A stretch of 64,000 nt of DNA from an uncultured Pelagibacteraceae bacterium. Its GTDB lineage: Bacteria > Pseudomonadota > Alphaproteobacteria > Pelagibacterales > Pelagibacteraceae. Below, piece after piece: positions 61 through 22,443 of this stretch (the stretch's first letter is position 1; each line of letters opens with the position of its first letter). The position numbers and the translations under genes were made by a program. The notes beneath the pieces were generated by a model. It did not search any database, was not told the origin of the DNA, and was given only the letters and a program-made list of their open reading frames with translations. The stretch is taken from assembly GCA_902628525.1 (NCBI GenBank), contig CACOMZ010000001.1, positions 141,186-205,185 on the forward strand, in the 5' to 3' direction.

Positions 61-1386
61 TTAACAGTCTAAAGTATTATCTTTTTCCCACTGAGTTACA
101 GGTCTTTTTTTATCGAATATATTTCGATTTCTAAAACTTTTTATTTCAGAATTTTTTAGTTTAATATAGCTTTTTATTACATCTGAACCGAAAGCTTCAG
201 ATAGTGATTTACTTTTTTCTAATATTTCTATTGCCTCAAAAATATCATTAGGTAATTTTTTTAAATTTGGATATTTTTTAAAGTCTTCATACATGTTGCA
301 ATGAAGAGGTTTGCCTGGATTTAATTTTTTATTAATTCCTTCAAGCCCAGCAGCAATTATGCCAGCTTGTAGCAAATAAGGGTTTGCTGAACCATCCATT
401 AATCTGAGTTCAAATCTTCCTTTGTCGGGAATTCTTATCATATGTGTTCTGTTATTACCCGTGTAAGAGATGCTGCTTGGTGACCAGGTAGCTCCAGATT
501 TTGTTGGTGGAGCATTAATTCTTCTATAACTATTTATTGTTGGATTAAAAAATGCTGAAAGTGCTTGAGTGTTATTCATAATTCCACCTAGGAAGTTATA
601 AGCTAACCTACTTAGACCTAATTCATCTTTATTATCTAAAAACTTGTTTTTGTTGCCGTCCCAAACTGAGACGTGAGCATGACATCCATTGCCCGTTAAA
701 TTGCTGAATGGTTTAGGCATAAATGTAGCCCTTAAACCATGCTTTTCAGCCAGACTTTTAACCATAAATTTAAAAAAAACATGTCTATCTGCAGTCACTA
801 GTGAGTCTGAGAAATCCCAGTTCATTTCAAACTGGCCATTAGCATCTTCATGATCATTTTGATAAGGTTTCCAACCCATTTCTAACATGCAGTCACATAT
901 TTCTTTTATTAAATCATATCTTCTCATTAAGGCTGATTGGTCATAACAAGGCTTAGATTGAATGTCTCTTTTATCTGCTATTGTTGAACCATCTTCAGAA
1001 ATTAAAAAATATTCACATTCTACACCAGATTTCACTTGAAGTTTTTTTTGCGACATTTTTTTTATTTGTTCTTTAAGCATAATTCTTGGCGAAGCTTTAA
1101 CTGGTTTACCATCCATGTATAAATCAGATGCCAACCATCCAATTTCCTTATTCCATGGTAGTTGAATTAAGCTATTAGGATCTGGCACTCCAAACATATC
1201 ACTATCTGCTGGTGTCATATCCAACCAAGTTGCAAATCCTGCAAAGCCTGCACCATCTCGTTGCATCTCGTTGATAGCCTGCGCAGGTACTAGTTTTGAT
1301 CTTAATACTCCAAATAAGTCAACAAAACTTATCAGAAAATATTTTATTTTTTTTTGTTTAGCAATTTTTGATAAATTTTTTGGCAT
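61..1386 (-). CDS. glnT: Gamma-glutamylmethylamide synthetase (GmaS; GlnT-type glutamine synthetase family)
   Basis: GS catalytic motifs ECEYF, DHEDANGQFE, FMPKPF..GNGCHAH, NNRTHMIR, RFELR. N-terminal FAGFA signature of GlnT/GMAS. Lies directly after mgsABC. Confidence 0.9.
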   Translation of the reverse strand: MPKNLSKIAKQKKIKYFLISFVDLFGVLRSKLVPAQAINEMQRDGAGFAGFATWLDMTPADSDMFGVPDPNSLIQLPWNKEIGWLASDLYMDGKPVKASPRIMLKEQIKKMSQKKLQVKSGVECEYFLISEDGSTIADKRDIQSKPCYDQSALMRRYDLIKEICDCMLEMGWKPYQNDHEDANGQFEMNWDFSDSLVTADRHVFFKFMVKSLAEKHGLRATFMPKPFSNLTGNGCHAHVSVWDGNKNKFLDNKDELGLSRLAYNFLGGIMNNTQALSAFFNPTINSYRRINAPPTKSGATWSPSSISYTGNNRTHMIRIPDKGRFELRLMDGSANPYLLQAGIIAAGLEGINKKLNPGKPLHCNMYEDFKKYPNLKKLPNDIFEAIEILEKSKSLSEAFGSDVIKSYIKLKNSEIKSFRNRNIFDKKRPVTQWEKDNTLDC

Positions 1387-1420
1387 AATTGATCTTATGA
1401 ATATAAAGGAATTCTATCAA

Positions 1421-2749
1421 TCATTTTTTTTCTTTTATTCCCGGTATCCAATCACTTCCAGCTAGAGGAACTCTAGCCATTGCTGCAGCTTCAACAGTGA
1501 GTGCGCATAAATCTTCAGGCTCTAGATTATGCAAACTATTTTTTCCACAAGCTCTTGCAAGTGTTTGAGCCTCTAGAGTCATAACCTTAAGATAGTTTGT
1601 TAATTTTTTACCAGCTTTTACTGGGTCTAATCTTTTCATCAAAGCTGGGTTTTGGGTCGATATTCCTGACGGATCATTGCCTTCGTGCCAATCGTCATAT
1701 GCCCCAGCGGTAGTACCTAACTTATTATATTCTTTTTCCCATTTAGGATCATTATCCCCTATAGCTATCATAGCGGCACTTCCAATCGACACGGCATCCG
1801 CACCTAGAGCTAAAGCTTTAGCAACATCTGCACCATTTCTAATTCCACCTGATATTATTAACTGTACTTCTCTATGAGCATTTAAATCTTGAAGAGCATC
1901 AACAGCTGGCCTTATGCAAGCTAAAGTGGGTTGACCGACATTTTCAATAAAGACTTCTTGTGTAGCTGCTGTTCCTCCTTGCATTCCATCAAGTACTACT
2001 ACATCAGCTCCAGCTTTAACTGCTAAAGCTGTATCATAATATGGTCTTGCACCTGCAATTTTTATAAAGATAGGAACTTTCCATTTTGTAATTTCACGTA
2101 GCTCTAAAATTTTAATTTTCAAATCATCAGGTCCAGTCCAATCAGGATGTCTACAAGCTGATCTTTGATCAACACCTTTTGGCAATGTTCTCATTTTTGC
2201 AACTCTATCATTGATTTTTTGACCTAATAACATTCCTCCACCACCAGGTTTTGCACCTTGGCCAATGACAACTTCAATTGCGTCTGCTTTTCTCAAATCA
2301 TCTGGGTTCATCCCATACCTAGACGGTAATAATTGGTAAACTAAATATTTTGATTGTCCTCTTTCTTCAGGTGTCATACCTCCGTCACCTGTAGTAGTAG
2401 ACGTACCAGCTGCGCTTGCACCTCTTCCTAAAGCTTCTTTTGCTGGACCTGACAAAGCACCAAAACTCATACCTGCGATTGTAATAGGTATGTCTAATTC
2501 TAGTGGTTTTTTTGCAAATTTAGTTCCAAGAGTGACATTAGTTGTGCATTTTTCTCGATAGCCTTCTAAAGGATATCTAGACATAGAGGCACCTAAAAAC
2601 AATAAATCATCAAAATGTGGAAGTTTTCTTTTAGATCCTCCACCTCTAATATCATAAATTCCTGTAGCTGCAGCTCTCCTAATTTCCGAATTGGTGTATT
2701 CATCAAAAGTCCAGGATTGACGAGGATGAGTTCTATTATTTTTTTTCAT
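1421..2749 (-). CDS. mgsC: N-methylglutamate synthase subunit C (FMN-binding glutamate synthase family, GlxD)
   Basis: GMSFGALS, GQGAKPGGGG, DGMQGGT and SGGIRNGADVAKALALGAD FMN-barrel motifs. No Fe-S Cys cluster. In operon with mgsAB and gmaS. Confidence 0.88.
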   Translation of the reverse strand: MKKNNRTHPRQSWTFDEYTNSEIRRAAATGIYDIRGGGSKRKLPHFDDLLFLGASMSRYPLEGYREKCTTNVTLGTKFAKKPLELDIPITIAGMSFGALSGPAKEALGRGASAAGTSTTTGDGGMTPEERGQSKYLVYQLLPSRYGMNPDDLRKADAIEVVIGQGAKPGGGGMLLGQKINDRVAKMRTLPKGVDQRSACRHPDWTGPDDLKIKILELREITKWKVPIFIKIAGARPYYDTALAVKAGADVVVLDGMQGGTAATQEVFIENVGQPTLACIRPAVDALQDLNAHREVQLIISGGIRNGADVAKALALGADAVSIGSAAMIAIGDNDPKWEKEYNKLGTTAGAYDDWHEGNDPSGISTQNPALMKRLDPVKAGKKLTNYLKVMTLEAQTLARACGKNSLHNLEPEDLCALTVEAAAMARVPLAGSDWIPGIKEKK

Positions 2750-2751
2750 AA

Positions 2752-3435
2752 CTAATAATTAGAAATATTATCTATTTTAAAATTATACAATTTCCTTGCT
2801 GAACCATATCTCTTAAAACTTTCAGCTTTTTGATTGTTTATATCTGCCTCTTTTAAAAGTAGTCTAAGTTTTTTAATATGCTTTTTATCCATTTTTTTTT
2901 CAACACAATCTGCACCAAGTGATTTAACCTTGCCTTTTATATATATGTTTGTTTCATATAAACTATCACCTAATGCCTCACCAGCATCACCACAAACTAC
3001 TAAATTTCCTGATTGGGACATGAAACCTGACATGTGGCCAACTGATCCTTTAACAACTATGTCAACACCCTTCATTGAAATACCACATCTTGAACTTGCG
3101 TCACCATCAATAATTAAAAGTCCACCGTGAGCTGTTGCTCCTGCAGATTGTGATGCATTACCTTTTACATGCACTTTACCTGACATCATGTTTTCAGCTA
3201 CACCAGTTCCTACGTTTCCATCTACTGTAATATTCGCTTTTTGATTCATGCCTGCACAATAATAGCCAACATGGCCTTTAATATTTATATTTAATTCTTC
3301 AGTAAGCCCAGCACATACAGCGTGATTTCCCTCAGGATTAATTATTGTAAAACTTCTATCATTTATTTTTCTATCTATATTTTGTAATTGTTCGTTTACT
3401 TTTCTTAACTTTAATTTTTTTAAATCTAATTTCAT
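2752..3435 (-). CDS. mgsB: N-methylglutamate synthase subunit B (GXGXG beta-helix, GlxC)
   Basis: Repeated GxxGxxxG beta-helix pattern. Start moved to ATG 3435 because it forms a TAATG overlap with the mgsA stop. Confidence 0.88.
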   Translation of the reverse strand: MKLDLKKLKLRKVNEQLQNIDRKINDRSFTIINPEGNHAVCAGLTEELNINIKGHVGYYCAGMNQKANITVDGNVGTGVAENMMSGKVHVKGNASQSAGATAHGGLLIIDGDASSRCGISMKGVDIVVKGSVGHMSGFMSQSGNLVVCGDAGEALGDSLYETNIYIKGKVKSLGADCVEKKMDKKHIKKLRLLLKEADINNQKAESFKRYGSARKLYNFKIDNISNY

Positions 3436-4319
3436 TAATTTCCCCAAGAATATACAATACCAGGTTCTGGCTCAAAAATTTTTGCATTATTAACATCTGG
3501 AAGATGTGCCATTGCCTGAAATTCAGATGCTATTGCAACATAATTTTTTGTTTCAGCTATAACTGCAGGCTTGCATGCAATTTCATCTCTTACTACCGCA
3601 AATCCTTTTCTGGTTCCTGCTATAAATGTATAAAAACCATCCAGGTCTTTTAGACCTGAAACAAGTGTGTTTTTTAATGAATTATTATTTGAGAGACTAT
3701 TAGAAACATAGCCAGCGGCAACTTCAGTATCGTTTTCAGAAGTAAAAGTGTTTCCTTTTTTTCTTAGCTCTCTTCTTAAGTTATTATGATTAGATAAGGA
3801 TCCGTTATGAACTAAACATTCATCTTCTCCAGTTGAATAAGGATGGGAACCATCAGTGGTTATTGCACTCTCGGTTGCCATTCTAGTGTGCCCAATTCCA
3901 TGTGTACCACTAAAACTTTCTAAATTAAATTTTTTAACCACCTCTTTTGGATTACCTACTTGTTTAAAAATCTCAATTGAGTGTCCATATCCAACAATAG
4001 AAACTTCAGGGAATTCTTTAGTCATAAAATTAATAAATTTTTTTGGTGTTTCAGTTGTTTTTATAATTACGTGATCTGAATATTGATTTAGTTTTAATTT
4101 TTTAATTTTTTTTGAAATATCTTTTTTAAATTTTTTAAAATCTAGATTATTAATGCATAAAGAATATTTATATTCACTTTTGTCTGAATTCTTATATATA
4201 GCAAATCCTGCACTATCTGGTCCTCTAGACTCCATGTTGTTAAGCATACCTGATAACATTTTACCTAATTTATTTTCAAATTTTTTTGTCTTGAGGTATA
4301 TACCAACAATTCCACACAT
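3435..4319 (-). CDS. mgsA: N-methylglutamate synthase subunit A (class II/Ntn glutamine amidotransferase, GlxB)
   Basis: MCGI N-terminal nucleophile, RGPDSAG, GHTRMATES, HNG, NDTE motifs. Confidence 0.88.
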   Translation of the reverse strand: MCGIVGIYLKTKKFENKLGKMLSGMLNNMESRGPDSAGFAIYKNSDKSEYKYSLCINNLDFKKFKKDISKKIKKLKLNQYSDHVIIKTTETPKKFINFMTKEFPEVSIVGYGHSIEIFKQVGNPKEVVKKFNLESFSGTHGIGHTRMATESAITTDGSHPYSTGEDECLVHNGSLSNHNNLRRELRKKGNTFTSENDTEVAAGYVSNSLSNNNSLKNTLVSGLKDLDGFYTFIAGTRKGFAVVRDEIACKPAVIAETKNYVAIASEFQAMAHLPDVNNAKIFEPEPGIVYSWGN

Positions 4320-4495: not shown

Positions 4496-4528
4496 AAAAA
4501 AAAAGGGCGCCACAATAAAGTAGCGCCC
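4496..4528 (-). terminator. Rho-independent terminator after amt and the small membrane protein gene
   Basis: Minus strand GGGCGCTAC-TTTATT-GTGGCGCCC (9 bp, one G.U) followed by T9. Confidence 0.85.
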
Positions 4529-4543
4529 AAATTTTAATTTAGA

Positions 4544-4774
4544 TTACCAATCGGTAATATTGCTTTTATGGTCATTAGCACCATGTCTTTTTCTAGCTAG
4601 TCTATCAAGTTCTTCACTTTCAGATCTAGCTGTTAAAACATGCCAACCAACCCATAAAATAATAGCAATGATTACTAGTATTCCTTCACTAGATCCAGCA
4701 CCAGGATAAACAGCACCAGCAACCTCTTCAGCTGGTTTGTTAAGGTGATCTATCCAGTTTGTAACTGTAGCCAT
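4544..4774 (-). CDS. Small membrane protein co-transcribed with amt (76 aa)
   Basis: Strong RBS AAGGAG. One TM segment (ILVIIAIILWVGWHVL). 13 nt after the amt stop. Confidence 0.8.
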   Translation of the reverse strand: MATVTNWIDHLNKPAEEVAGAVYPGAGSSEGILVIIAIILWVGWHVLTARSESEELDRLARKRHGANDHKSNITDW

Positions 4775-4787
4775 ATATTACTCTCCT

Positions 4788-6188
4788 TTACCTGGTTGAG
4801 GACGCAACTGCTTTTTCGTCTTCTTTAGCAGTCTCCATTATTTCATAGTCTAGTCCAGCTATTTCAACTTCACGAGGGATTCTTAATTTACCCATACCAT
4901 GAAGCACCTTAGCTATGACATAGCCCGGTATTAGCCCAAGAACAACGAACATTATTAATGCACCGATGAATTGACCTAATGGGTTTATTGAAGCGTAGGT
5001 AGTTCCGTCCCACATAGCACCAACACTGTAACCAGAAGCTGGGTAACCATTTAAGACAAATCCACATATCACTAGACCTATAAAGCCAGCATAACCGTGT
5101 ACTGCAACGGCACCAACTGCATCATCAATTTTGAACTTACGTTCAACCCAATAATGTAGTTTGTATGAAATCACAACACCAATCATACCAATGATCATTG
5201 CTTGAATTGGATGATATAAATCATTTCCAGCTGAAGCACATATTATACCTGCTAGTCCACTTGAATAAGTCCAGAAAGGATCACCTTTAGCAATCCAATA
5301 TCCGGCCAATAACCCTCCTGACAATGACATCAAGAAGTTAAAGGTAATACCACTCAGTGTAGTAGGGGTTACATAAATGTTTGTTGCTGTCCAATAAGAT
5401 ATGCCTTCCATACCGTATTCAGGTCCCAGATCAAAAATTGGTATATTACAAGCTGCATAAAATCCCCAGAAACCAGTATAAATTAAAAATAATCCAATTG
5501 TTACTAGCCAAGGATTTCTTGGTCCAATGTTTCTTGGTTCACCACTCGATGAAAATTTTCCAATTCGTGGTCCCAAAACCATTAGAACACCTAATGCAAA
5601 TCCACCTGCAATTGCGTGAATTACACCTGATGCATAAGCATCATGATATCCTAAAAGTTTTAACATCCAGCCATCAAAGTGCCATCCCCAGGCTGCATCT
5701 ATTACCCAGAACACAGATCCAATTGCAATTGCTAAAATTCCAAATGCAAAAGTTGTTATTCTTTCAATAATTGCTCCTGACACGATAGAAGCAGCAGTCC
5801 ATGAGAATAATAAGAATGCAGCCCAGAAGACACCAGAAATATGGTCTCCTAGATTTACAGCCATTAAATCACTTGTTGCCGTATACCATGTTGCACTAAA
5901 TGCGGACTCGTCTGTAATGAGAGCGGTGCTTTCATTCATTATTGATGGTGCTAATCCCGGTCCTGTAGGAAAAGCCCAATAAATCCACCAACCAAATAAA
6001 AACCACGTCACTGTTACCAATGGTATCAGCATAGTATTTTTCATAAGAGTGTGTTGATGGTGTTTGTATCGAGAAGCTCCAACTTCATACATACAGAAAC
6101 CGACGTGAATTAAAAACATCAGTACTACAGTTACCCAGTAGTAAAATTCTGTAAATATGGTAGTAAGAGCAGCCAACTGATCAGTCAT
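4788..6188 (-). CDS. amt: Ammonium transporter (Amt) family protein, divergent; probably a methylamine transporter
   Basis: About 11 hydrophobic segments, SIVSGAIIER, twin His (VIHAIAG, AVHGYAG), LGPR, IDDAVGA motifs. RBS GGAGAG. Confidence 0.9.
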   Translation of the reverse strand: MTDQLAALTTIFTEFYYWVTVVLMFLIHVGFCMYEVGASRYKHHQHTLMKNTMLIPLVTVTWFLFGWWIYWAFPTGPGLAPSIMNESTALITDESAFSATWYTATSDLMAVNLGDHISGVFWAAFLLFSWTAASIVSGAIIERITTFAFGILAIAIGSVFWVIDAAWGWHFDGWMLKLLGYHDAYASGVIHAIAGGFALGVLMVLGPRIGKFSSSGEPRNIGPRNPWLVTIGLFLIYTGFWGFYAACNIPIFDLGPEYGMEGISYWTATNIYVTPTTLSGITFNFLMSLSGGLLAGYWIAKGDPFWTYSSGLAGIICASAGNDLYHPIQAMIIGMIGVVISYKLHYWVERKFKIDDAVGAVAVHGYAGFIGLVICGFVLNGYPASGYSVGAMWDGTTYASINPLGQFIGALIMFVVLGLIPGYVIAKVLHGMGKLRIPREVEIAGLDYEIMETAKEDEKAVASSTR

Positions 6189-6257
6189 ATTCTCTCTCCA
6201 TATTAGTTTATAGAATCCTATTAAATTTTGTGATTCGTTACAAATATAAAAATGGAT

Positions 6258-6287
6258 TAAAAACCTATTATGAACAATAGGTTTTTA
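6258..6287. promoter_or_regulatory. Perfect 12-bp inverted repeat upstream of amt (weak terminator or operator)
   Basis: TAAAAACCTATT-atgaac-AATAGGTTTTTA. Confidence 0.45.
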
Positions 6288-6313
6288 AAAATTATCAACT
6301 GTTGATTGTAAAA

Positions 6314-6730
6314 TTAAAATTTTAAGTAAGCTTTTTTCAAATCAACTAGAGGATGCTTTGGAGACATTTGAAACTTAACTAAAAGTTCTCTTGCAATCAT
6401 ATCTCTATCTTGTTGATTGTTTGGAAGTTTAATTGATTTCGGAATAGTAACCCAACCATTTGCATTTCTGCAAAATACTGCCGGTCTATCTTCCTCATAT
6501 CCCATATGAACATCTTCTAACCAGTTTAAATCATCCCATCCCATTGCTTCTATATATTTTTTTAGAAATGGTGTAATTTTACTGTAATCAGGTAAAAGAT
6601 TAACATCATATCGGTAACCAATTGATTGACCGATCATTTTTTCTCTTGCTGTTTCTGCTTTTTTACCTAGTTGACCTTTGATTTCTTTATTTTTTGCTTT
6701 AACTATCTTTTTACCCTTTTTTTTTGCCAT
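6314..6730 (-). CDS. Hypothetical protein, last gene of the second mgs-like operon
   Basis: 138-aa ORF 11 nt after the mgsC-like stop. No family recognised. Confidence 0.8.
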   Translation of the reverse strand: MAKKKGKKIVKAKNKEIKGQLGKKAETAREKMIGQSIGYRYDVNLLPDYSKITPFLKKYIEAMGWDDLNWLEDVHMGYEEDRPAVFCRNANGWVTIPKSIKLPNNQQDRDMIARELLVKFQMSPKHPLVDLKKAYLKF

Positions 6731-6741
6731 AGTTATTACCC

Positions 6742-8154
6742 TTATATTTTGTGATAGTTATCAACTCCAACAGTATAATTTGTTCCTGCTAATGGAACTT
6801 TTGCTAAAGCTGAAGCCTCCGATGTCAAAGCAGCTAAGTCTTCAGGCTCTAGTGAATGAATATTTGTTTTACCACATGCTCTTGCTAAAAGTTGAGCTTC
6901 TAAAGTCATAGAGTGTAAATAATTATAGACCCTAAGAGCGGCATCATCAGGATTTAGTCTTGCTCTTAATTTTGGATCTTGAGTGGCAACACCTACTGGA
7001 CATCTTCCAGTATGGCAGTGATAACACTCACCAGCTTTTACTCCCATTTCTTTTTCAAAGTTTGCTTCTGGAATATCTTTATTACAATTAAGTGCAATCA
7101 TTGAACCAGTACCAATCGCAATTGCATCAGCACCAAGAGCTAAAGCTTTAGCCATGTCAGCACCATCTCTTACACCACCTGCATAAATTAATGTTACTTT
7201 TCCAGTTTTACCAACATCATCAATCGCTCTTCTTGCTTCTCGAATGGCAGCAATACCAGGAATACCAGTATTTGCAGCAGCAATGTGCGGACCTGCACCA
7301 GTCGATCCTTCCATACCATCTAGATAAATAGAGTCAGGATCACATTTAGCAGCCATACGTACATCATCATAGACCTTTGAAGCACCAAGTTTTAACTGAA
7401 TTGGAACTTTATTTTTTGTTAATTGTCTTAACTCCTCGACTTTAAGAGCCAAATCATCTGGACCTAACCAGTCAGGGTGCCTTGCAGGAGATCTTTGATC
7501 AATACCCGATGGTAAAGATCTCATCTCAGCAACTTGGTCAGTAACTTTTTGGCCCATTAAGTGACCACCCATTCCTACTTTTTGTCCTTGCCCGATAAAA
7601 ACTTCAATACCATCAGCCAATTGTGCGTGATGAGGGTTAAAACCATATCTCGATTGGATACATTGATAGTACCATTTTTCAGAATACCTTCTTTCATCTG
7701 GTATCATTCCACCTTCCCCAGAGCATGTTGCGCTTCCAGCCATTGTAGCTCCACGCGCTAAAGCTGTTTTTGCTTCATAAGACAGTGCACCAAAACTCAT
7801 TCCTGTTATATAAACAGGTATTTCGAGTTCGATTGGATTTTCACATCTTGGTCCAATTACAGTTTTAGTCTCACATTTTTCTCTGTAACCCTCGATGACA
7901 AATCTCGTTAGTGTTCCTGGTAAGAATACCAAATCATCAAAAGTTGGAATTTTTTTCATTAGCGCCATACCACGCATTCTGTATCTGCCTAATTGAGATT
8001 TAATGTGGATGTCGTCTATTACTTCTGGTGTAAAAATAGCATTGTGTCCTAATAAGCTTTTATTTCTCTTTCCCTCCTCGTGGACATGAACATCAGCTTT
8101 ACCTCCAACACCTTTTCCATTTTTTTTAATTTTTTTATTTTTTTTCTTAGGCAT
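6742..8154 (-). CDS. FMN-binding glutamate synthase family protein (MgsC paralog) with Fe-S Cys motif
   Basis: GMSFGALS, GQGQKVGMGG, DGMEGSTGA, AGGVRDGADMAKALALGAD, plus ALNC...CYHCHTGRCPVG. Confidence 0.88.
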   Translation of the reverse strand: MPKKKNKKIKKNGKGVGGKADVHVHEEGKRNKSLLGHNAIFTPEVIDDIHIKSQLGRYRMRGMALMKKIPTFDDLVFLPGTLTRFVIEGYREKCETKTVIGPRCENPIELEIPVYITGMSFGALSYEAKTALARGATMAGSATCSGEGGMIPDERRYSEKWYYQCIQSRYGFNPHHAQLADGIEVFIGQGQKVGMGGHLMGQKVTDQVAEMRSLPSGIDQRSPARHPDWLGPDDLALKVEELRQLTKNKVPIQLKLGASKVYDDVRMAAKCDPDSIYLDGMEGSTGAGPHIAAANTGIPGIAAIREARRAIDDVGKTGKVTLIYAGGVRDGADMAKALALGADAIAIGTGSMIALNCNKDIPEANFEKEMGVKAGECYHCHTGRCPVGVATQDPKLRARLNPDDAALRVYNYLHSMTLEAQLLARACGKTNIHSLEPEDLAALTSEASALAKVPLAGTNYTVGVDNYHKI

Positions 8155-9008
8155 TAAATTGCTCCCTTCTTCTCTGTAGGTTCCAAATTGTCATAATTCC
8201 AAAGTTTTTTACCCGCTACAATTTTTTTCATTTTACTTACATCAAAATTTTCACCAATTTCTGCAACTTTTAACTTTCTTTTTAACCAATCTTGATCACT
8301 AAGTGTTAATTCTGAATCTACCGCATCACTACCATAAGATCCAATTTCTCCACCTACGAAAATTGTCCCATCATACATTGAGTCGCCCAGGTTAATTCCA
8401 ACATCTCCAAGTATGATTATTCTTCCTCTTTGCATCATAAAACCTGTAAAAGCACCGGCATCACCACCTATTATTATAGTTCCACCTTTCATATCAATAC
8501 CTGTTCTAGCTCCAACACTACCTTTGCATATTAAATCTCCACCTCTAATAGCCGCCCCAAAACAAGATCCAGCATTTTTTTCGATTACTACTTTTCCAGC
8601 CATTAAGTTTTCTGCACAGGACCATCCAACTCTACCATTAATTCTCACAATAGGTCCATCACACGAACCCATTCCAAAATAACCTAAGCTTCCTTCAAAT
8701 ATTAAATTCAATTTATTTAAGATACCAACCCCAAGGCTGTGTTTACCTTGTGGATTTTTTATCACAATAGTTCCATAACCCTGGCTCATGAGATTATCTA
8801 TTTCCTTATTTGCTTCAGGAGCTGTCATATCTTTTACATCAAGGTCAGTTCTTTTATTGAAATCAACATCATAAGTACCAAAATAATAAAAGTTTTCGGC
8901 CTCATCAGGATTAAAAAACTTTTGTTGAGTTCTACCTGTTAAAACTTCAGTATGCATACCCATAGCTTGGGCTTTGGTTTTTTTAGATACAGTTTTTAAA
9001 TTCGCCAT
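8154..9008 (-). CDS. GXGXG beta-helix protein (MgsB paralog)
   Basis: GXGXG repeats. C-terminal KKLWNY resembles RKLYNF of mgsB. RBS GGAGG. Confidence 0.87.
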   Translation of the reverse strand: MANLKTVSKKTKAQAMGMHTEVLTGRTQQKFFNPDEAENFYYFGTYDVDFNKRTDLDVKDMTAPEANKEIDNLMSQGYGTIVIKNPQGKHSLGVGILNKLNLIFEGSLGYFGMGSCDGPIVRINGRVGWSCAENLMAGKVVIEKNAGSCFGAAIRGGDLICKGSVGARTGIDMKGGTIIIGGDAGAFTGFMMQRGRIIILGDVGINLGDSMYDGTIFVGGEIGSYGSDAVDSELTLSDQDWLKRKLKVAEIGENFDVSKMKKIVAGKKLWNYDNLEPTEKKGAI

Positions 9009-9940
9009 ACTTTAACCTCCCCATCAAATGGATCGTATGTATCAATTTCTTGAGGCAATACGGATCTTATTGCAATTTCTTCTGATCCCATTGCTACTAA
9101 TTCGTCACTTTCATACAAAACTAGAGGTTTTGCGGCCATTGTATCTTTCGCCATTCCCAAAGAGTCTTTTGTTGCAACAAAATAAGTAAATACACCATCA
9201 AGACCAGTTAAAGAATCCTTCATTCCTTCTTCAAGAGTTGCTCCCTCTCTCATTTTCTGTGCTATATAAACTGCTATTAATTCAGAGTCACATTCAGACA
9301 TAAATCTCATACCTTTATTTTCTAATGCTCTTCTGTTGTTCCAGTAATTTGTAAGCTGTCCATTGTGGACTACTGAAACATCGCTAAATGGATAGCCCCA
9401 AAAAGGGTGAGCTGATTTAATATCAACACCTGACTCAGTAGCCATTCTAGCATGGCCAATTGCATGAGTTCCCACTAATTTATCTAGAGAATATCTGTCA
9501 CAAACTGCTTTTGCATTTCCAAGATCTTTAATTACCTCTAAAGATTTACCCATTGATAATATTTCAACACCAGGTATGCTTTCAATAGTCTGTGAGAAGT
9601 TTAGTAAGTCTTTTACATTATAGTCAATTTCATATCTTAATGAATAAGGAAGAGTACGTTCTTCTTTAATTACTTTCGCTCCAAGTTCAGCAAGGGTTTC
9701 GTCTACAACTTTTTTTCTTTCATCATAAACAGAAACATCCTCCATAACTGAAGAAGACCCCTCTCCAACATTTTCTCCAACCTTAAAACGCATAATGAAA
9801 TTTTTACCATCTGTGTCACCGTATAAAGCATAACCAGTTGAGTCTTCTCCTCTATGTTTTAATGCTTGAAGCATTCCTTGTAGTTCAGACCCAACGTTAG
9901 AGGACTTCCCTCTATGAATTAACCCAGCTATTCCACACAT
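8996..9940 (-). CDS. Class II glutamine amidotransferase (MgsA paralog)
   Basis: MCGI, RGEDSTG, GHARMATES, HNG, CDSE. Confidence 0.87.
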   Translation of the reverse strand: MCGIAGLIHRGKSSNVGSELQGMLQALKHRGEDSTGYALYGDTDGKNFIMRFKVGENVGEGSSSVMEDVSVYDERKKVVDETLAELGAKVIKEERTLPYSLRYEIDYNVKDLLNFSQTIESIPGVEILSMGKSLEVIKDLGNAKAVCDRYSLDKLVGTHAIGHARMATESGVDIKSAHPFWGYPFSDVSVVHNGQLTNYWNNRRALENKGMRFMSECDSELIAVYIAQKMREGATLEEGMKDSLTGLDGVFTYFVATKDSLGMAKDTMAAKPLVLYESDELVAMGSEEIAIRSVLPQEIDTYDPFDGEVKVWRI

Positions 9941-9967
9941 AAATTTATACCCTTTCTATTTAACGAC

Positions 9968-11437
9968 CTACGGTAGACAATCAAGATAAGTATCAAGATC
10001 CCATTGTGTAGTTGCACCAAGGAATCTTTCCCACTCATCATTTTTGTACCAATGGAATACTTTATACATTTCGTCTGGCATCGCAGATTTGATTACCTCA
10101 TCCTCTGCAAGTCTATCTAGAGCTTCACCAAGACTTAATGGAAGTTTTTTAACATCTTTACCAGCTTTCTGAGCTTCATAAATATTTCTTGACTCTGGAG
10201 CGGCTGGTTTCATTTTTTTGCTAATACCTTCGTCACATGCTTTTAGTAATGCTGCACCTAGTAAGTAAGGATTATGCATAGAGTCAACCGATCTGTACTC
10301 AAATCTTCCTGGTGCTGAAACTCTTAAACCACAAGTTCTATTTTGGTATCCCCAGTCAGCATATACAGGAGCCCAAAATCCTTGATCCCATAATCTTCTA
10401 TAAGAATTTACTGTAGAAGATCCTAGTGCAGTTAATGCTGGTAAGTGTTTCATGATACCAGCTATAGATTGTAATCCAATTTTTCCAGGAAGTTGTGGAT
10501 CTTTAGTGTCAGGCATGAAGGTATTTGTTCCACCTTCTACATAACTAAATACTTCGTCTACACCTGGCAAAGACTTATGTCCAAGTTTATTTAATTTTAC
10601 TTTTCCACCTTTCCATAAAGACATATTTGTATGACAACCACTAGCAGAAACACCCATAAATGGTTTAGTCATAAAGCATGCAATTAAATTGTGTTCCCTC
10701 GCAACTTGTGCACAAATTTGTCTATAAGTAGATAATCTGTCTGCATTTCTCATAACATTGTCGAAAGTCCAATTAAGTTCTAATTGACCAGGAGCATCCT
10801 CGTGATCACCCTGAATCATATCAAGACCCATAGCGTTTGAATATTCAATAACCTTCATAAAAACTGGCCTTAACGACTCGAATTGATCAATGTGATAACA
10901 AAATGGTTTTGAGAAACCTTTACCAGTCGGTGTACCATCATCATTTTTAGTTAACCACATCATTTCAGGTTCAGTTCCGACTCTTAATTCTAGACCATGT
11001 TTCTTTTTAAACTCATCCATGAAAATTCTTAAGTTTCCTCTGCAATCTGAAGTAAGATGACCACCTGGGTTTACTCTTTCCTCTCTATTTCTAAAACATG
11101 TACAAAATACTCTTCCAACTCTTTTATCCCATGGCAATTGAACAAAAGTTTCAGGGTCAGGTATACCAACAAGCTCCATTGCTTCTGGCCCATATCCTAT
11201 ATAATTATTATGACGATCTAAAAATAAGTTTGCTGTTGAACCGTAAACTAGTTGAAAACCTTTCTCAGCCGTTCGTTCCCAATGATCAGCAGGAATACCT
11301 TTTCCAACAACTCTTCCAGTAACTGAAATGAATTGAAAATAAATATATGTGATACCTAATTCTTTGATTTTTTCTCTTACTTTTTTTACCAGTTTAGCTC
11401 TTCCTGGTTGATTTACATGTTTTTCTAAATCAGTCAT
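9968..11437 (-). CDS. Glutamine synthetase family protein (probable gamma-glutamyl-amide ligase, second copy)
   Basis: GTEPE, DHEDAPGQLE, FMTKPF..SGCH, NRTCGLR, RFEYR. The ammonia-site flap Glu is replaced (GFWAP). Confidence 0.88.
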   Translation of the reverse strand: MTDLEKHVNQPGRAKLVKKVREKIKELGITYIYFQFISVTGRVVGKGIPADHWERTAEKGFQLVYGSTANLFLDRHNNYIGYGPEAMELVGIPDPETFVQLPWDKRVGRVFCTCFRNREERVNPGGHLTSDCRGNLRIFMDEFKKKHGLELRVGTEPEMMWLTKNDDGTPTGKGFSKPFCYHIDQFESLRPVFMKVIEYSNAMGLDMIQGDHEDAPGQLELNWTFDNVMRNADRLSTYRQICAQVAREHNLIACFMTKPFMGVSASGCHTNMSLWKGGKVKLNKLGHKSLPGVDEVFSYVEGGTNTFMPDTKDPQLPGKIGLQSIAGIMKHLPALTALGSSTVNSYRRLWDQGFWAPVYADWGYQNRTCGLRVSAPGRFEYRSVDSMHNPYLLGAALLKACDEGISKKMKPAAPESRNIYEAQKAGKDVKKLPLSLGEALDRLAEDEVIKSAMPDEMYKVFHWYKNDEWERFLGATTQWDLDTYLDCLP

Positions 11438-11504
11438 ATTCCCCCTTTTGAATTTCTAGATCAAAAAGGTAACTGAAAAAAAAACGTTTGTCTACTTAGA
11501 TAAA

Positions 11505-12833
11505 TTAACTCCAAGGAAATGGACTGTTCGATGTGGGGTGTAATTCACCCTTAGCATAACGAGCATATCTAAACGGTTTTAATAACTCACTTTCTTGACC
11601 TAAAATCTCTTGAGCAACTAGATGACCAACACCAATCATTTTATAACCATGATTAGCATCAGCAATCATATATACGTTTTCAAAAAATCTATCAAATATT
11701 GGAAAAGAGTCAGGCGTTAAACAACCTAATCCTCCGGATGGACCTTTTCTATATAAATTAGATTTTCCCTCAAATCTTTTTTGAATGTGTGCTAGCGCTG
11801 ATGTCCACATATCCGCAAATTTGTCTGTGGTTTGAAACTCTGGTGATTCTACTCCATAAGGATCAACATTTACTTGATCAAAATGTTTTTGAACAATGTA
11901 AGGTGAGGTTCCTCCTTGAACTCCCAATCCATCTATATCTGGTTTATAATAAATTCCCCAAAGTTCATCAGTAATTAATTTTTTGTCTTTATCAGAATAT
12001 AAAGGAGCATCAGTATCCACATGAATTACAGGTGGTTGTTTACCTTCATTAGTCTTTAAATAGTCAGCATCAACACCTAAGACGCCTTCTTGTAAAAACC
12101 AATATTTCCACATTTCAACTTCGTGCATTTTTCCATCTTTGCCTTTGATCTCAGTTGATTTTGGTAATTCAAGCATGTTCCAAAAGTCTCTAACCCATGG
12201 TCCAGCTCCTACGACCACTTGATCACATTCTATAGTTCCTAAATTTGTAACTACGCCCGTTATTGCATTACTATTACTACCTCTTTTAAAACCTGTAACT
12301 TTTACACCTTTGTGCACTTCTACACCATTTGAGTTGGCTTTGTTCTCTAAAGCTTTTATTGAATCTTTATTGAAAGCATATCCACCTTTTTTTTCATGAA
12401 GAACAGATGTTATGCCTTTAGCTTGCCAATCATCGAAAATACCTTTCATATAATTCGTACAATCTTTTTCACCTTCTATGAAAACTGACTCATACCCAAT
12501 TGCTTTTTGCTGTTCATAAATGCTAGCTACATCCTCATGCATTACCTCTGGTGATATTTGCATGTAACCAACTGGATTATACTTAAATGCTTTAGGATCA
12601 CTTTCCCAAACAGAAACCGAATGAGCCATGAGTTCTCTCATAGCTGGCTGGAAATAATTGTTTCTAACAACTCCACAAGCAATTCCACTTGCACCAGCTG
12701 CAGTATCTTTTTTTTCTAGTACAATTACATCTCCAGGATTTTTGTATGTTTCTGAAAGTTTCCAAGCGGTACTCAATCCGTGTATACCACCACCAATTAT
12801 AACTACTTTAGCTTTTGTTGGTAAAGTGGACAT
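11505..12833 (-). CDS. FAD-dependent oxidoreductase (DAO / sarcosine-oxidase-beta-like)
   Basis: GGGIHG dinucleotide motif, GASGIACG, TPDSFPI, HGYK. Confidence 0.85.
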   Translation of the reverse strand: MSTLPTKAKVVIIGGGIHGLSTAWKLSETYKNPGDVIVLEKKDTAAGASGIACGVVRNNYFQPAMRELMAHSVSVWESDPKAFKYNPVGYMQISPEVMHEDVASIYEQQKAIGYESVFIEGEKDCTNYMKGIFDDWQAKGITSVLHEKKGGYAFNKDSIKALENKANSNGVEVHKGVKVTGFKRGSNSNAITGVVTNLGTIECDQVVVGAGPWVRDFWNMLELPKSTEIKGKDGKMHEVEMWKYWFLQEGVLGVDADYLKTNEGKQPPVIHVDTDAPLYSDKDKKLITDELWGIYYKPDIDGLGVQGGTSPYIVQKHFDQVNVDPYGVESPEFQTTDKFADMWTSALAHIQKRFEGKSNLYRKGPSGGLGCLTPDSFPIFDRFFENVYMIADANHGYKMIGVGHLVAQEILGQESELLKPFRYARYAKGELHPTSNSPFPWS

Positions 12834-12935
12834 ATTAAAACTTTATTTTTTGAAAATACATATTTATATAATTTTTTATAGAACTAAAATTTATATATAA
12901 AAATTAGATATTTTGCTTTCTAATAAAATTATCTG

Positions 12936-13286
12936 CTAATAACTTATGTTTTTTAGAGTAACTAAATATTTATTAAACTCATCAATAAAAGATTCACTTG
13001 GCATTATATTTTTAATTCTTTGGTCGGTTGAAGTTTTTTCTAATCTAAAGAATCCTTTTTCACAGGCTTCTGTAATTATTAATGCTGATTTAGGTCTTGA
13101 AGTTTTAAAAAGTTTTGTCTTAAGTTCTTCTACAGATAATTTATTTCCCTCTTTGTAGGCAGACATAACTAATAACATCATATGATAATGCGACGGAGAT
13201 TTTCTAAAAAAATAATTACTAGATGTATGTGACTGTCGCATTTGATCTTCCCAAAAATCTAGAAGTGTTTTCTTGTCTTTTACCAT
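12936..13286 (-). CDS. Small protein, probable winged-helix (MarR-like) DNA-binding protein
   Basis: LSVEEL...SRPKSALII..ACEKGF...DQR resembles a MarR wing (D-x-R). Coupled to the tdm stop. Confidence 0.6.
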   Translation of the reverse strand: MVKDKKTLLDFWEDQMRQSHTSSNYFFRKSPSHYHMMLLVMSAYKEGNKLSVEELKTKLFKTSRPKSALIITEACEKGFFRLEKTSTDQRIKNIMPSESFIDEFNKYLVTLKNISY

Positions 13287-13290
13287 AAGT

Positions 13291-15651
13291 TTACGCTCTT
13301 ACTCTAGACTTTGTTGGATCATAAAAAGGAAAACCAACTACTTTTGCACTAATTCTTTTTTGATGTCCATCAATTTTACCAATTTCCACTTCAGTTCCAA
13401 TTTCTGAGTACTGAACATCAATCCTGCAAAGTGCAATATTTTTATTTAAAGTGGAGGATAAACATCCACTTGTAACAATACCAATTTGAGATCTTCCAAT
13501 ATGAACACAATCCCCATGTCCAGCTATTTCTTTTCCAGCAAGTTCTAGACCTACTAATTTTTTTTGTGGATTAGCTTTTCTTTTAATCAATTCATCTTTA
13601 CCAATAAAATCTTCCTCCTTTGTTTTCAATGGCACAGCAAAACCTATACCAGCCTCAAAGGGATCTTGCTCACCATCAAACTCAGCACCAAATAAAATTA
13701 AACCAGCTTCAATTCTAAGTTTATCCAATGCCGCAAAACCAGCTGGTATTAATCCATCATCTTTACCTGCCTCCATTAATTTATCCCAAACTTCTGGAGC
13801 ATGTTTTGGATGGCACCAAACTTCATAACCCAATTCTCCAGTATATCCTGTTCTTGACACAATTAGTGGAATCCCTTGAAGCTCTTCAATTCTACAAATT
13901 GTAAATCTAAACCAACCTAGTTCGTCTATTGAGGGCTGAGTTGGTGGTGTAAAAATTATTTTTTTTAATATTTCTCTACTTTTAGGTCCCTGTAAGGACA
14001 CATTGCTGATTTGGTCTGTAGAGTTTTTAATAAACGCATTAAAATTTTTCTTTTTTGCAATTTCTTTAAGCCATTCTCCACCGTATTCATCTCCACATAT
14101 CCATCTAAAACCTGTTTCACTTAATCTTAAAAGCGTTCCATCATCAAACATCATACCATTTTCGTAACACATGGCTGAATAAACAACTTGTCCAACAGAA
14201 AGTTTTTTTATATTTCGAGTGAGAGTATAATTTAATAGCTCCTCTGCATCTGGACCAATAATTTCAAATTTCCTCAATGAAGAAAGGTCAATTAGTACAG
14301 CATCATTCCTGCATGCATTATATTCATTGACTAAACCGTGTTTGGTGTAATCGTTTGGAAGCCAAAAACCTCTAGCATCAACAAAGTTTCTAGTTAATTG
14401 AGAAGTTCTATCGTAAAAACCTGAATTTCTTGTAAGTTTTTTTTCTGAGTCTGTTTTCATTCTAAATGCAAATGATTTACTAAATTCTTTTTTTTTGTCG
14501 TATGTTCTAACAAAAATATCTGTTGGATTCCATGAATTACAAGGATCAATATCACTTGGGCATGCGGTCGTTCCAATTGTTAAATCTTTTAGAGCTCTAA
14601 ACATTACGTAATCACCTGGACGTGAATAAGACTCATCTGAAATAACGGAATTTAAACCAGCTGCAGAAGTGTTAAAAAATAAATTAATCGCGTGCCAACC
14701 TTTCTGTTTTTTTACTCCAAATTTAGACATACTTTCAGTTAAATTATCTGAGCAATTTGGATGTCCAAAGTAACCTGAATCTTCATAATATTTAGAAGTA
14801 CAAGCAAGATTGAAAGTATCATGTTTGCCAACTGTATCTCTTACAACCTCTACTAGTGGTTCATGATCAGTATCATAAAATTTTGAAAATAGACCAGGTC
14901 CAGGAAAAGTATTGCCCATAAAAGTTCTAGTGGTTTGCCAATCTAATCCTTTTTCAATTCCTTTTTCTAATTTTCTTGTATCGAATGCAACAAAATCTGA
15001 GCATTGTCTACCTGTAGGACTTATAATTTGTATATAGTCACCTTCTTTAACCTCATAAGATGTACAAGTTTGCCTTAAGATATTTTCTTCATGTGCTGGC
15101 TCATAAACAGGGTCAGGAATTACATTTAACTCTTTATCATTTATAATTTTTGACCTTTTTATAAATATTGTTAATTCACCAGGAGGATTTTGATTTGTAA
15201 CATCCATATCATCTCCAGGAGAAGCAAATATTGCATAACAATTATCTTTTGATTTTAATTTTATAGTTTCCCCTACAGCTGTATCAGTATCGAAAATTAC
15301 AGAGGACTTTGAATTTGAAATATTTAAATTTCTTTTTTTTAATTGATAGTTTGTTGCAAGAATTGCCTCATCTTTTCCTCGCAAAATATTTTTAATATAA
15401 TTTTTTTTACTATTTTCTCTTAGATTTAAGATTCCAAGTTCAGAATCTCCATCTTTATTAAAACATATAATTTCACAAATTTGATTTCCCTCACTATTTA
15501 TTATCTCTATTTCGTCATCTGGAAAAATTTGAAATCCAGTAAGACCACCACCATTAACAATATGCCGTTCAACTCCAGGTGGTAAAACATTTAAACCAGG
15601 ATATTTGATATCTTTACTAGTACCTAACATTTTTAAATTTTCTGTGACCAT
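13291..15651 (-). CDS. tdm: Trimethylamine N-oxide demethylase (DUF1989 + GcvT domains)
   Basis: DUF1989 with QCSDF, HDTFNLAC..GHPNC and ACP Cys/His ligands fused to a GcvT domain (SRTGYTGELGYE). Divergent from tmoX. Confidence 0.9.
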   Translation of the reverse strand: MVTENLKMLGTSKDIKYPGLNVLPPGVERHIVNGGGLTGFQIFPDDEIEIINSEGNQICEIICFNKDGDSELGILNLRENSKKNYIKNILRGKDEAILATNYQLKKRNLNISNSKSSVIFDTDTAVGETIKLKSKDNCYAIFASPGDDMDVTNQNPPGELTIFIKRSKIINDKELNVIPDPVYEPAHEENILRQTCTSYEVKEGDYIQIISPTGRQCSDFVAFDTRKLEKGIEKGLDWQTTRTFMGNTFPGPGLFSKFYDTDHEPLVEVVRDTVGKHDTFNLACTSKYYEDSGYFGHPNCSDNLTESMSKFGVKKQKGWHAINLFFNTSAAGLNSVISDESYSRPGDYVMFRALKDLTIGTTACPSDIDPCNSWNPTDIFVRTYDKKKEFSKSFAFRMKTDSEKKLTRNSGFYDRTSQLTRNFVDARGFWLPNDYTKHGLVNEYNACRNDAVLIDLSSLRKFEIIGPDAEELLNYTLTRNIKKLSVGQVVYSAMCYENGMMFDDGTLLRLSETGFRWICGDEYGGEWLKEIAKKKNFNAFIKNSTDQISNVSLQGPKSREILKKIIFTPPTQPSIDELGWFRFTICRIEELQGIPLIVSRTGYTGELGYEVWCHPKHAPEVWDKLMEAGKDDGLIPAGFAALDKLRIEAGLILFGAEFDGEQDPFEAGIGFAVPLKTKEEDFIGKDELIKRKANPQKKLVGLELAGKEIAGHGDCVHIGRSQIGIVTSGCLSSTLNKNIALCRIDVQYSEIGTEVEIGKIDGHQKRISAKVVGFPFYDPTKSRVRA

Positions 15652-16759: not shown

Positions 16760-17137
16760 ATGAAAAAGACACTACTTTTAGTATTTGTAAGTTTTTTGGT
16801 ATGCTCAACAGTATTTGCTCGAAGCACTGGCTGTAAAGAAGGTAATTGCGATAATGGTTATGGCAAGTGGGTTTATACTGACAAAACCACTTATGAGGGT
16901 GAGTGGGTTTCAACAAAAAAACAAGGACAAGGTGTAGAGACATGGCCTAACGGATATATTTATAAAGGGGAGTTTAAAAACAGTGAGTGGAGTGGGCAAG
17001 GAATTTTAACTTTTCCTGATGGATCTACTTATGATGGTGAATGGTCAAAAGGTTTTATGAATGGCAAAGGAACATTCACTTGGGCTGATGGAAGACAGAA
17101 AACAGGTATTTGGATAAACGGTAAGTTGCAAGAATAA
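16760..17137 (+). CDS. Secreted MORN-repeat protein
   Basis: Signal peptide and repeated YEGEW..G.G / YKGEF..GQG / YDGEW..GKG units. Confidence 0.88.
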   Translation: MKKTLLLVFVSFLVCSTVFARSTGCKEGNCDNGYGKWVYTDKTTYEGEWVSTKKQGQGVETWPNGYIYKGEFKNSEWSGQGILTFPDGSTYDGEWSKGFMNGKGTFTWADGRQKTGIWINGKLQE

Positions 17138-17688
17138 TGTTAAAAGAAAATTATATTAGCAAAATTAAGAATTTTCCTGAATCTCTAAGACAATTTATTG
17201 GTCTAATAATTATTACAGTAATAGTAATAATTTCTTTCAGTATTCTAAATGGAATTTTTGGACAGGGTGACGATTTAGTTGAAAGAATGAAGTTAGAGGA
17301 GGAAAGAATTGCTGAAGAAAAAAAATTAAGTGCATTAATATCTAAATTACCCTCAGGTATATTGGTTTCATTTGATGGTACAGATCATTATAAATTAACA
17401 GATGAGGTATATGAACAAGTATGTAAAGCAACAAAATTAATCCCTCAAAGAGCTATTATGGGAGCCAATTTTTTAAATTTCAGAGCTCATGAGCTTTATA
17501 CAATTAATGGAAATAAAATTGATGAAACTTTTGTTAAATGGGATGAAGAAAAAAGAAAATGTTTTGCTGGTTTCACAGTTAGTGGGAATAATGTTGGGGT
17601 AGATGAAAGTGTTACAATAAGTGGAGAGGCTCTTAGTTTTTTAAGCACCGGCATTGATACGAGGGTTTATTTTATTAAAAATTTTTAA
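17137..17688 (+). CDS. Hypothetical membrane-anchored protein
   Basis: N-terminal TM helix and short coiled segment. TAATG coupling to the MORN gene. Confidence 0.75.
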   Translation: MLKENYISKIKNFPESLRQFIGLIIITVIVIISFSILNGIFGQGDDLVERMKLEEERIAEEKKLSALISKLPSGILVSFDGTDHYKLTDEVYEQVCKATKLIPQRAIMGANFLNFRAHELYTINGNKIDETFVKWDEEKRKCFAGFTVSGNNVGVDESVTISGEALSFLSTGIDTRVYFIKNF

Positions 17689-22425: not shown

Positions 22426-22443
22426 AGATAATAAAAGATAAAA

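Follow-up and report, generated by a model that had tools for sequence, protein, structure and literature searches.

A 64,000-nucleotide stretch of an uncultured Pelagibacteraceae genome (GenBank assembly GCA_902628525.1, contig CACOMZ010000001.1, positions 141,186 to 205,185; hereafter the window) carries, behind the trimethylamine N-oxide (TMAO) demethylase gene tdm, a cassette whose core encodes a ligase of the glutamine synthetase (GS) family, designated GS2, a trio resembling MgsA, MgsB and MgsC (Mgs2), and a 138-residue protein, Orf138. It is probable that the physiological substrate of this cassette is dimethylamine (DMA), the amine released by Tdm, and likely that the cassette is a non-homologous replacement for the DMA monooxygenase Dmm and the DMA-consuming route in SAR11. 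Dmm-independent glutamylation of DMA had been proposed in the initial annotation of the locus, and co-occurrence patterns in genome sequences now support it: dmm is almost completely excluded from tdm-bearing genomes that carry GS2, the cassette is linked to tdm and tmm in a variety of gene arrangements, and in Pelagibacter the cassette and tdm are lost together. The order of steps that we favor, via N,N-dimethylglutamate, has about an even chance of being correct.

Exclusion of Dmm and linkage to DMA sources

The mutual exclusion of Dmm and GS2 is clearest in a family (f88) sampled at one genome for each of 201 genera, where 33 genomes had DmmC, 21 had a GS2 orthologue and 58 had a tdm match. 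Five genomes whose sole tdm match scored 1010–1053 bits, like second copies elsewhere, and one 53% GS2 paralog (G459) were set aside. The 53 genomes with true tdm comprised 30 with Dmm only, 21 with GS2 only, none with both and two with neither, against 11.9 overlaps expected (Fisher p = 8e-13, or 4e-10 with the five low-score genomes retained), and all 21 GS2 genomes carry tdm. Because related genomes are not independent, an rpoB tree was built from the 49 of 54 genomes that had rpoB, five Dmm genomes dropping out. The Dmm/GS2 state changes eight times on this tree, with starred branches forcing at least six changes, and in six independent pairs Dmm was never found with GS2 (sign test median p = 0.031, range 0.031–0.125). 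Either dmm or the cassette occupies the same position in the tmm/tmo/tdm cluster. Separately, a second full-length Tdm-like paralog (1015–1065 bits) was observed apart from the methylamine cluster in G087, G533, G427, G552, G545, G508 and G496, and five genomes carry this second type alone.

A similar pattern was obtained in 401 Alphaproteobacteria, of which 33 carry tdm, 36 carry GS2 and 24 carry the two together, compared with about three expected. When dmm was scored as a HODM gene (PF11927) adjoining a reductase gene, the operon was present in 0/24 genomes with tdm and GS2 and in 4/9 with tdm and no GS2. PF11927 matched nine of the 33 tdm-bearing genomes; the four with an adjoining reductase all lack GS2, and the matches in two GS2 genomes are stand-alone homologues, as judged from 1.5 kb flanks. 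PF11927 by itself was rejected as a dmm marker for being too broad, since 7 of 11 matches have no adjacent reductase among the scanned ORFs. Five tdm-bearing Alphaproteobacteria contain neither system, and four of these have tdm scores below the cut-off (608–1023 bits) that may represent a paralog or fragment. Of 50 non-SAR11 GS2 genomes drawn from the GTDB contig scan described below, tdm was present in 38 and DmmC in one.

Some genomes with GS2 and without tdm may have another supply of the same amine. A full-length trimethylamine (TMA) dehydrogenase orthologue was detected in 5 of 24 such genomes, in none of 30 controls and in 1 of 24 genomes carrying both GS2 and tdm (p = 0.013), and lies about 11 kb from GS2 in G097. 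The Tyr of the 'TEYCS' motif of 1djn is retained in four of the five orthologues (four were checked); DMA dehydrogenase differs at this site. TMA dehydrogenase would be an alternative DMA source in these five genomes. Regulation bears on the same question. A divergent GntR/FCD gene lies upstream of the cassette in 80/108 non-SAR11 loci, and against four Dmm genomes its best match is the regulator at the TmoR position in three and a gene located about 7 kb away from dmmC in the other. DMA is the main effector of TmoR (PMC13390433).

In the host genome (861 kb in 32 contigs, 68% complete), no homologue of DmmA, DmmB, DmmC or TMA/DMA dehydrogenase was found, in line with the initial annotation, which had seen none in the window; three congeners that are 99% complete gave no DmmA or dehydrogenase, while positive controls were detected. 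Among 151 Pelagibacteraceae genomes, MgsC2 was present in 73, of which 36 (counting the unpublished genome G775) also have the canonical MgsC1 and 37 lack the canonical Mgs trio; MgsC1 alone was found in none. Mgs2 is therefore the core set in Pelagibacteraceae and canonical Mgs the accessory one, and its description in the initial annotation as the second, paralogous set needs correcting; the two sets are not recent paralogs either. Within the window's genus MgsC2 occurs in 68 of 74 sampled genomes, and co-loss is seen in Pelagibacter, where 4/4 genomes without MgsC2 also lack tdm.

Organization and spread of the cassette

The genes reported behind tdm are real, intact and all on the minus strand, with domains as originally described. 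The features are as follows.

13291–15651, minus strand: tdm, TMAO demethylase with DUF1989 and GcvT domains (PF09347, PF01571, PF08669), the DMA source
12936–13286, minus strand: 116-residue ORF, possible helix-turn-helix (HTH) protein, an ESM-Atlas lead only
11505–12833, minus strand: FAD oxidoreductase (PF01266), accessory, sarcosine/dimethylglycine-oxidase fold; SAR11_1304 type by gene order
9968–11437, minus strand: GS2, GS-family amine:glutamate ligase in a clade of its own; SAR11_1305 type by gene order
8996–9940, minus strand: MgsA2, class II (Ntn) amidotransferase subunit with N-terminal Cys (PF13522)
8154–9008, minus strand: MgsB2, GXGXG beta-helix subunit (PF01493)
6742–8154, minus strand: MgsC2, FMN-binding glutamate-synthase-like subunit with a Cys cluster motif (PF01645)
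6314–6730, minus strand: orf138, core gene directly 3' of mgsC2, matching no known family
4788–6188, minus strand: divergent Amt (PF00909; TIGR00836 at 178 bits, under the cut-off); SAR11_1310 type by gene order
4544–4774, minus strand: 76-residue protein containing a single hydrophobic stretch, a conserved Amt partner, identified from sequence and missing from the first list of genes
4505–4528, minus strand: terminator-like hairpin at the cassette end (9-pair stem, 7 G-C pairs, T run)
61–4319, minus strand: canonical mgsA1B1C1-gmaS of the monomethylamine (MMA) pathway, outside the cassette; GmaS above the TIGR03105 cut-off and 568 bits to RhGmaS (7cql)

Intergenic gaps from tdm to the 76-residue gene are, in order, 4, 102, 67, 27, -13, -1, 11, 125 and 13 bp. 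The canonical set, which the initial annotation had correctly placed after the cassette, begins 224 bp past it with the hairpin in between; the scan that gave the hairpin, taken overall, yielded no more sites than shuffled sequences. Tdm matches NF053776 over its full length at 1087.7 bits (cut-off 1100), and congeners score alike. The window is SAR11-like in composition and sequence: it has a GC content of 26–36%, and its GS2 is 89–97% identical to GS2 of Pelagibacter and other Pelagibacteraceae loci. Further along lie tmoXWV, tmm, fhs and soxB/soxA; a MORN-repeat gene and a 183-residue gene separate tmoX from tmoWV, and two genes resembling glycerol kinase and glycerol-3-phosphate dehydrogenase, as read by eye, stand between tmoV and tmm (16760–17688 and 20947–23400 for the two stretches).

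The same gene order is found in HTCC1062 at SAR11_1303-1316, matched by order and not by sequence, and the annotations given there for SAR11_1303-1310 (AMT, monomeric sox, glnT, gltB2, hypothetical, amt) agree with the cassette (PMC3160333, PMC3870248). The portions of these two papers cited here assign no DMA role to SAR11_1305-1309. The DMA route in SAR11 is left open in PMC3870248, in which SAR11_1304 alone is discussed as a possible amine demethylase. HTCC1062 grows weakly on TMAO as sole nitrogen source and has no dmm, for which an unknown Dmm isoenzyme has been postulated (PMC8918994).

GS2 was sought in GTDB contigs, and 80 loci were kept of at least 551, from Alpha-, Gamma- and Betaproteobacteria, Acidimicrobiia and others; a class sample added 40 stretches and a single family another 20. 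Downstream order was counted where at least 4 kb of downstream sequence was available, and a few genomes may be counted twice, as L007 and L094 come from one genome. mgsA2, mgsB2, mgsC2 and orf138 follow GS2 in 81/85 non-SAR11 and 23/23 SAR11-like loci. The FAD gene is present in 66 of the 95 non-SAR11 loci with 2 kb upstream. Because the trio and orf138 are near-constant and the FAD gene is often absent, we take GS2-mgs2ABC-orf138 as the core module, which by its distribution appears to be old, separate and widespread across several bacterial classes. In a metagenome scan, orf138 was recovered from at least 80 loci at 80–98% identity; a plasmid search returned relatives only at 38–53%. RNA contigs from four runs in three studies cover the cassette at 90% likeness, which records presence only, includes relatives and permits no ranking of genes.

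The 116-residue ORF was observed only in SAR11-like loci and is replaced in other taxa by the divergent GntR/FCD gene. The one support for its earlier label as a winged HTH protein is that a MarR/Lrp HTH family covers 11% of the members among its ESM-Atlas neighbors; no Pfam or NCBIfam match was found. Amt occurs in the Dmm-type loci L194, L205 and L213 at 65–66% identity, and since Dmm-type clusters carry it too, it is a general methylamine-cluster gene. The 76-residue gene, without a Pfam match, lies behind amt in many loci. Amt and this partner (4544–6188) travel together in clusters of the Dmm type and of the GS2 type alike, and the partner may have an accessory role for Amt. No Rfam match was found for a riboswitch in the spacer upstream of amt (6189–6313), and the cited part of an RNA survey lists the amt spacer with no motif name (PMC2704228). 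A promoter scan gave fewer sites than shuffled sequences.

Several neighboring genes vary between loci. A 197-residue protein (L183:9813-10403 and homologues) lies near orf138 in 60 of 108 non-SAR11 loci; it has no family match, was not found in the window's genome, and was rejected as a stand-in for the FAD oxidase. A nitrilase-family gene lies behind or near orf138 in 18 loci. In L010:3-4800, L032:151-5540 and L096, a third Mgs-like set with a fused GXGXG-FMN protein and a GltD-like NAD(P)H subunit lies near the cassette. In L125:4534-10688 (G081) and L065:9989-15638 (G651), GS2 is immediately followed by soxB/soxA-like genes with no Mgs2, and G081 has no Mgs, gmaS or tdm.

Enzymes of the cassette and the proposed route

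The layout recalls the N-methylglutamate pathway (GmaS, MgsABC and MgdABCD), which likewise pairs a GS-family ligase with a split glutamate-synthase trio. GS2 is distinct from the characterized ligases. It scores 294 bits against TIGR03105 for GmaS (cut-off 469.6, which the window's canonical GmaS passes at 625 bits), 241 bits against TIGR00653 for GlnA (cut-off 429) and 217 bits against NF045547 for gamma-glutamylputrescine synthetase (cut-off 650), and is 27% identical to the canonical GmaS of the window. GS2 forms a separate clade with starred support of 100 in a quick tree of 59 rows, which does not settle its link to GmaS. All seven residues of the methylamine pocket assigned in RhGmaS (PMC7948447), Y147, Q175, D177, E179, E186, N188 and K30', are retained in GS2, as are the metal ligands and the flap Trp; the amine-pocket, metal and phosphate residues checked against the structure (7cql) are kept save for listed substitutions. 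Changes relative to RhGmaS include A48' to V, Y174 to I, N176 to G, G231 to A and H237 to N, and the flap is five residues shorter. The ammonium-handling Asp50' and the flap Glu of type I GS are missing, with Val64 and Trp in their places. The combination of amine pocket, flap Trp and absent Asp50' is found in the window protein and in 130–131 of 131 GS2 rows. Because the amine pocket is kept and the Asp and Glu of GS are missing, GS2 is best read as a small-alkylamine ligase; it is predicted to be a gamma-glutamyl-dimethylamide synthetase. RhGmaS turns over DMA with a Km of 16 mM (PMC7948447); this assay may not be product-specific, since TMA, which cannot form an amide, is listed there as a substrate. 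A sister group of GS2 (53–60%) was also observed, with Trp or Phe at the Asp50' site; in its loci L126, L128, L129, L130 and L359 it is accompanied either by another GS-like gene plus an ABC transporter or by an aldehyde dehydrogenase plus glutamyl hydrolases.

The Mgs2 trio has the MgsABC architecture, with an Ntn amidotransferase bearing Cys1, a GXGXG subunit and an FMN domain beside a GS-like ligase. Identities between the two sets of the window are 30–32% for MgsA, 34–36% for MgsB and 49% for MgsC. The amidotransferase catalytic motifs of MgsA2 are intact in 112–114 of 114 homologues. MgsC2 and MgsC1 form reciprocal clades (starred support of 99 each) with 48 fixed differences, where the canonical set consists of gmaS-linked homologues from the sampled loci, not of assayed proteins. 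The cassette differs from the N-methylglutamate pathway in having MgsC2 as a sister clade, the extra partner Orf138, and a distribution that tracks tdm and excludes dmm. A Cys cluster motif is present in 106/106 MgsC2 and 4/21 MgsC1 sequences; as a sign of different chemistry it was rejected because those four canonical proteins retain it. The canonical MgsC of the window (1421–2749) has Asp or other residues at the four Cys positions, and other Pelagibacter have an MgsC1 type, 74–75% identical, that retains the Cys, so that two MgsC1 types circulate in the genus.

Orf138 has a mean identity of 70% with many invariant Trp and Tyr residues and no cofactor motif that we could see. Fold searches with a model of pLDDT 75.7 gave a best Z of 2.7 and Foldseek E of at least 0.9, and the Atlas returned nothing usable. 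It is likely a fourth subunit or helper of Mgs2, a role that we infer. Orf138-MgsC2 fusions are singletons, and of three inspected one is clean and in frame and two resemble frameshift artefacts; they were not counted as evidence.

The FAD oxidoreductase was modeled at pLDDT 91.9 and has the N-methyl amino-acid oxidase fold, the best matches being SoxB, monomeric sarcosine oxidase, dimethylglycine oxidase and dimethylglycine dehydrogenase (17–22% identity, query TM-scores of about 0.67–0.74, Foldseek E of 1e-22 to 1e-28). Unlike those enzymes, it has no folate-binding domain and is encoded by an accessory gene; its score against TIGR01373 (sarcosine oxidase beta/MgdA) is 70 bits (cut-off 529), and no soxDAG genes adjoin it within the window. 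On the strength of the modeled fold it is predicted to be an N,N-dimethylglutamate demethylase. The proposal in the initial annotation that the cassette itself carries out an oxidative demethylation survives in that a candidate enzyme for it is encoded there, and needs correcting in that this enzyme is dispensable. Among ten GS2 genomes of 94–100% completeness, picked since the FAD gene was not beside GS2, nine lack it genome-wide, and we therefore rejected the FAD oxidase as an obligatory step. Cassette genomes without it have two or three SoxB-family/Mgd paralogs each.

We propose that GS2 would join Tdm-released DMA to glutamate with ATP, forming gamma-glutamyl-dimethylamide, which MgsA2 would hydrolyze. 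With 2-oxoglutarate an iminium would form, which MgsC2 would reduce to N,N-dimethylglutamate, so that the Mgs2ABC-Orf138 complex would in effect move the dimethylamino group onto 2-oxoglutarate. The FAD oxidase, or an Mgd/SoxBDAG paralog where it is missing, would strip one methyl from this product, and the resulting N-methylglutamate is likely processed by Mgd as in the known pathway. The two methyl groups would be released as formaldehyde or methylene-tetrahydrofolate and the nitrogen recovered in glutamate, with no need for free methylamine to appear. The mechanism is modeled by analogy on the proposed GmaS/Mgs cascade (PMC6237917). Gene content, catalytic residues, DMA-gene linkage and dmm exclusion are observed; every chemical step is one that we infer. 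Canonical GmaS is present in 28/36 GS2 genomes, yet GS2 has its own Mgs clade. It is missing from the other eight, four of which carry tdm, so that the route need not pass through free methylamine, which is probably never released. DmmDABC of Ruegeria pomeroyi (PMC5520151) stands at the same place in tmm/tmo/tdm clusters and fills the same predicted pathway gap; the cassette has no homology to it, and its predicted chemistry draws on ATP and glutamate in place of heme and O2 and would yield N-methylglutamate rather than free MMA.

Competing readings and implications

The main alternative, an unlikely one, keeps DMA as substrate and changes the order: an oxidase would take one methyl off gamma-glutamyl-dimethylamide to leave gamma-glutamylmethylamide (GMA), and Mgs2 would be an ordinary isozyme converting GMA to N-methylglutamate. 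Support for it comes from loci with other downstream partners. In G552, the tmm-tmo-tdm cluster contains a flavodoxin gene, a ferredoxin-reductase-like gene, GS2 and a cytochrome P450 gene (L180:2280-6814 and L277), and the genome has only canonical gmaS-mgs-mgd, with no Mgs2 and no dmm. The P450 is a candidate amide N-demethylase, and the arrangement resembles the Ipu pathway (PMC6776027), likened by scheme and not by sequence, in which IpuC (gamma-glutamyl-isopropylamide synthetase) glutamylates the amine before a P450 oxidizes it; the main cassette has an Mgs-like trio and no P450. L062:5902-13632, from a record titled as a Synechococcales metagenome-assembled genome (MAG), has the order tdm-tmm-GS2-fatty-acid-desaturase-like-alpha/beta hydrolase, and its genome yielded no Mgs; it is possibly a third way of oxidizing the glutamylated amine or a binning error. 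In both loci GS2 has kept its place in a tdm cluster although its downstream partners differ, which supports DMA as the substrate under either order. The Pelagibacteraceae in which Mgs2 is the only Mgs (37/73) also fit an amide-stage oxidation: gmaS is kept in 3/3 tested single-contig genomes of this kind, so that Mgs2 probably accepts GMA too. In G706, however, gmaS persists in the absence of any Mgs, which weakens this isozyme argument. Moreover, the Mgs2 cassettes share no demethylase, since many lack the FAD oxidase and Orf138 has no visible cofactor motif. Retention in 81/85 loci would not be expected of a redundant GMA isozyme, and the similarity of the FAD protein is to oxidases of amino acids rather than of amides.

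It is improbable that the cassette handles another small amine, such as ethylamine or a different secondary amine, and that its association with TMAO metabolism is coincidental. In favor of this reading, the pockets of GmaS-type enzymes are promiscuous (PMC7948447), tdm is missing from 12/36 and 12/50 GS2 genomes, and all seven pocket residues recur in the sister group, whose gene contexts differ and include other transporters and hydrolases. Such a substrate leaves unexplained the absence of dmm overlap in 53 genomes, the repeated switches, the shared tmm/tdm cluster position and the link to TMA dehydrogenase. A redundant or differently regulated set for MMA, or for ammonium assimilation by GS and glutamate synthase, is very improbable: the public annotations glnT and gltB2 (PMC3870248), the conserved MMA pocket and the genomes with Mgs2 as the only Mgs would suit it, whereas GS2 has neither the Asp50' nor the flap Glu of ammonium-using GS, canonical GmaS co-exists in 28/36 genomes, and exclusion of Dmm, itself a producer of MMA, would not be expected of an MMA isozyme.

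Several points weigh against DMA as the substrate or against the route through N,N-dimethylglutamate. Over all 201 genomes of f88, without conditioning on tdm, the exclusion is weak (p = 0.028); G495 and G559 carry tdm with neither system; and G630, a MAG with GS2, DmmC and DmmA, is a real or a binning exception. No DMA source was found in 19 of the 24 GS2 genomes lacking tdm, and the GntR identities are only 29–42%. The amine pocket alone cannot specify DMA, because the sister group shares it. Nitrogen-limited HTCC1062 showed an increase in SAR11_1304 and a decrease in SAR11_1305 and SAR11_1308 protein (PMC3870248), so that in this strain the cassette genes do not behave as a single regulatory unit. 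The demethylation step rests on Mgd paralogs where the FAD oxidase is missing, the set of GS2, P450 and canonical Mgs in G552 favors amide-stage demethylation in that genome, the reductant of Mgs is not known (PMC6237917), and the literature searched contained no report of Mgs-type transfer of a secondary amine.

For DMA, the Dmm route is the only one described as of June 2026 in PMC13390433. In the searched open-access literature we found no paper giving the cassette a DMA role or naming both intermediates in this sense. The fate of Tdm-made DMA in SAR11 is a stated open question (PMC3870248, PMC5520151, PMC8918994), and from the absence of dmm in SAR11 a metabolic bottleneck has been proposed, with DMA escaping and seeding marine aerosols (PMC5520151). 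Our broadest proposal is tentative, with slightly less than an even chance of holding in full: SAR11 and many marine, sponge and soil bacteria may degrade DMA without a monooxygenase, via two undescribed metabolites, gamma-glutamyl-dimethylamide and N,N-dimethylglutamate, and with a four-subunit Mgs-like enzyme able to transfer a secondary amine; this may be the dominant route outside the dmm-rich family (24 versus 4 of 33 tdm-bearing Alphaproteobacteria); and the oceanic 'DMA bottleneck' may be an artefact of counting dmm genes alone. If the cassette consumes DMA, most dmm-negative TMAO users would be complete degraders, estimates of the DMA sink and of organic-nitrogen use would change, GS2, mgsC2 and orf138 would serve as marker genes, and the enzyme chemistry would be new.

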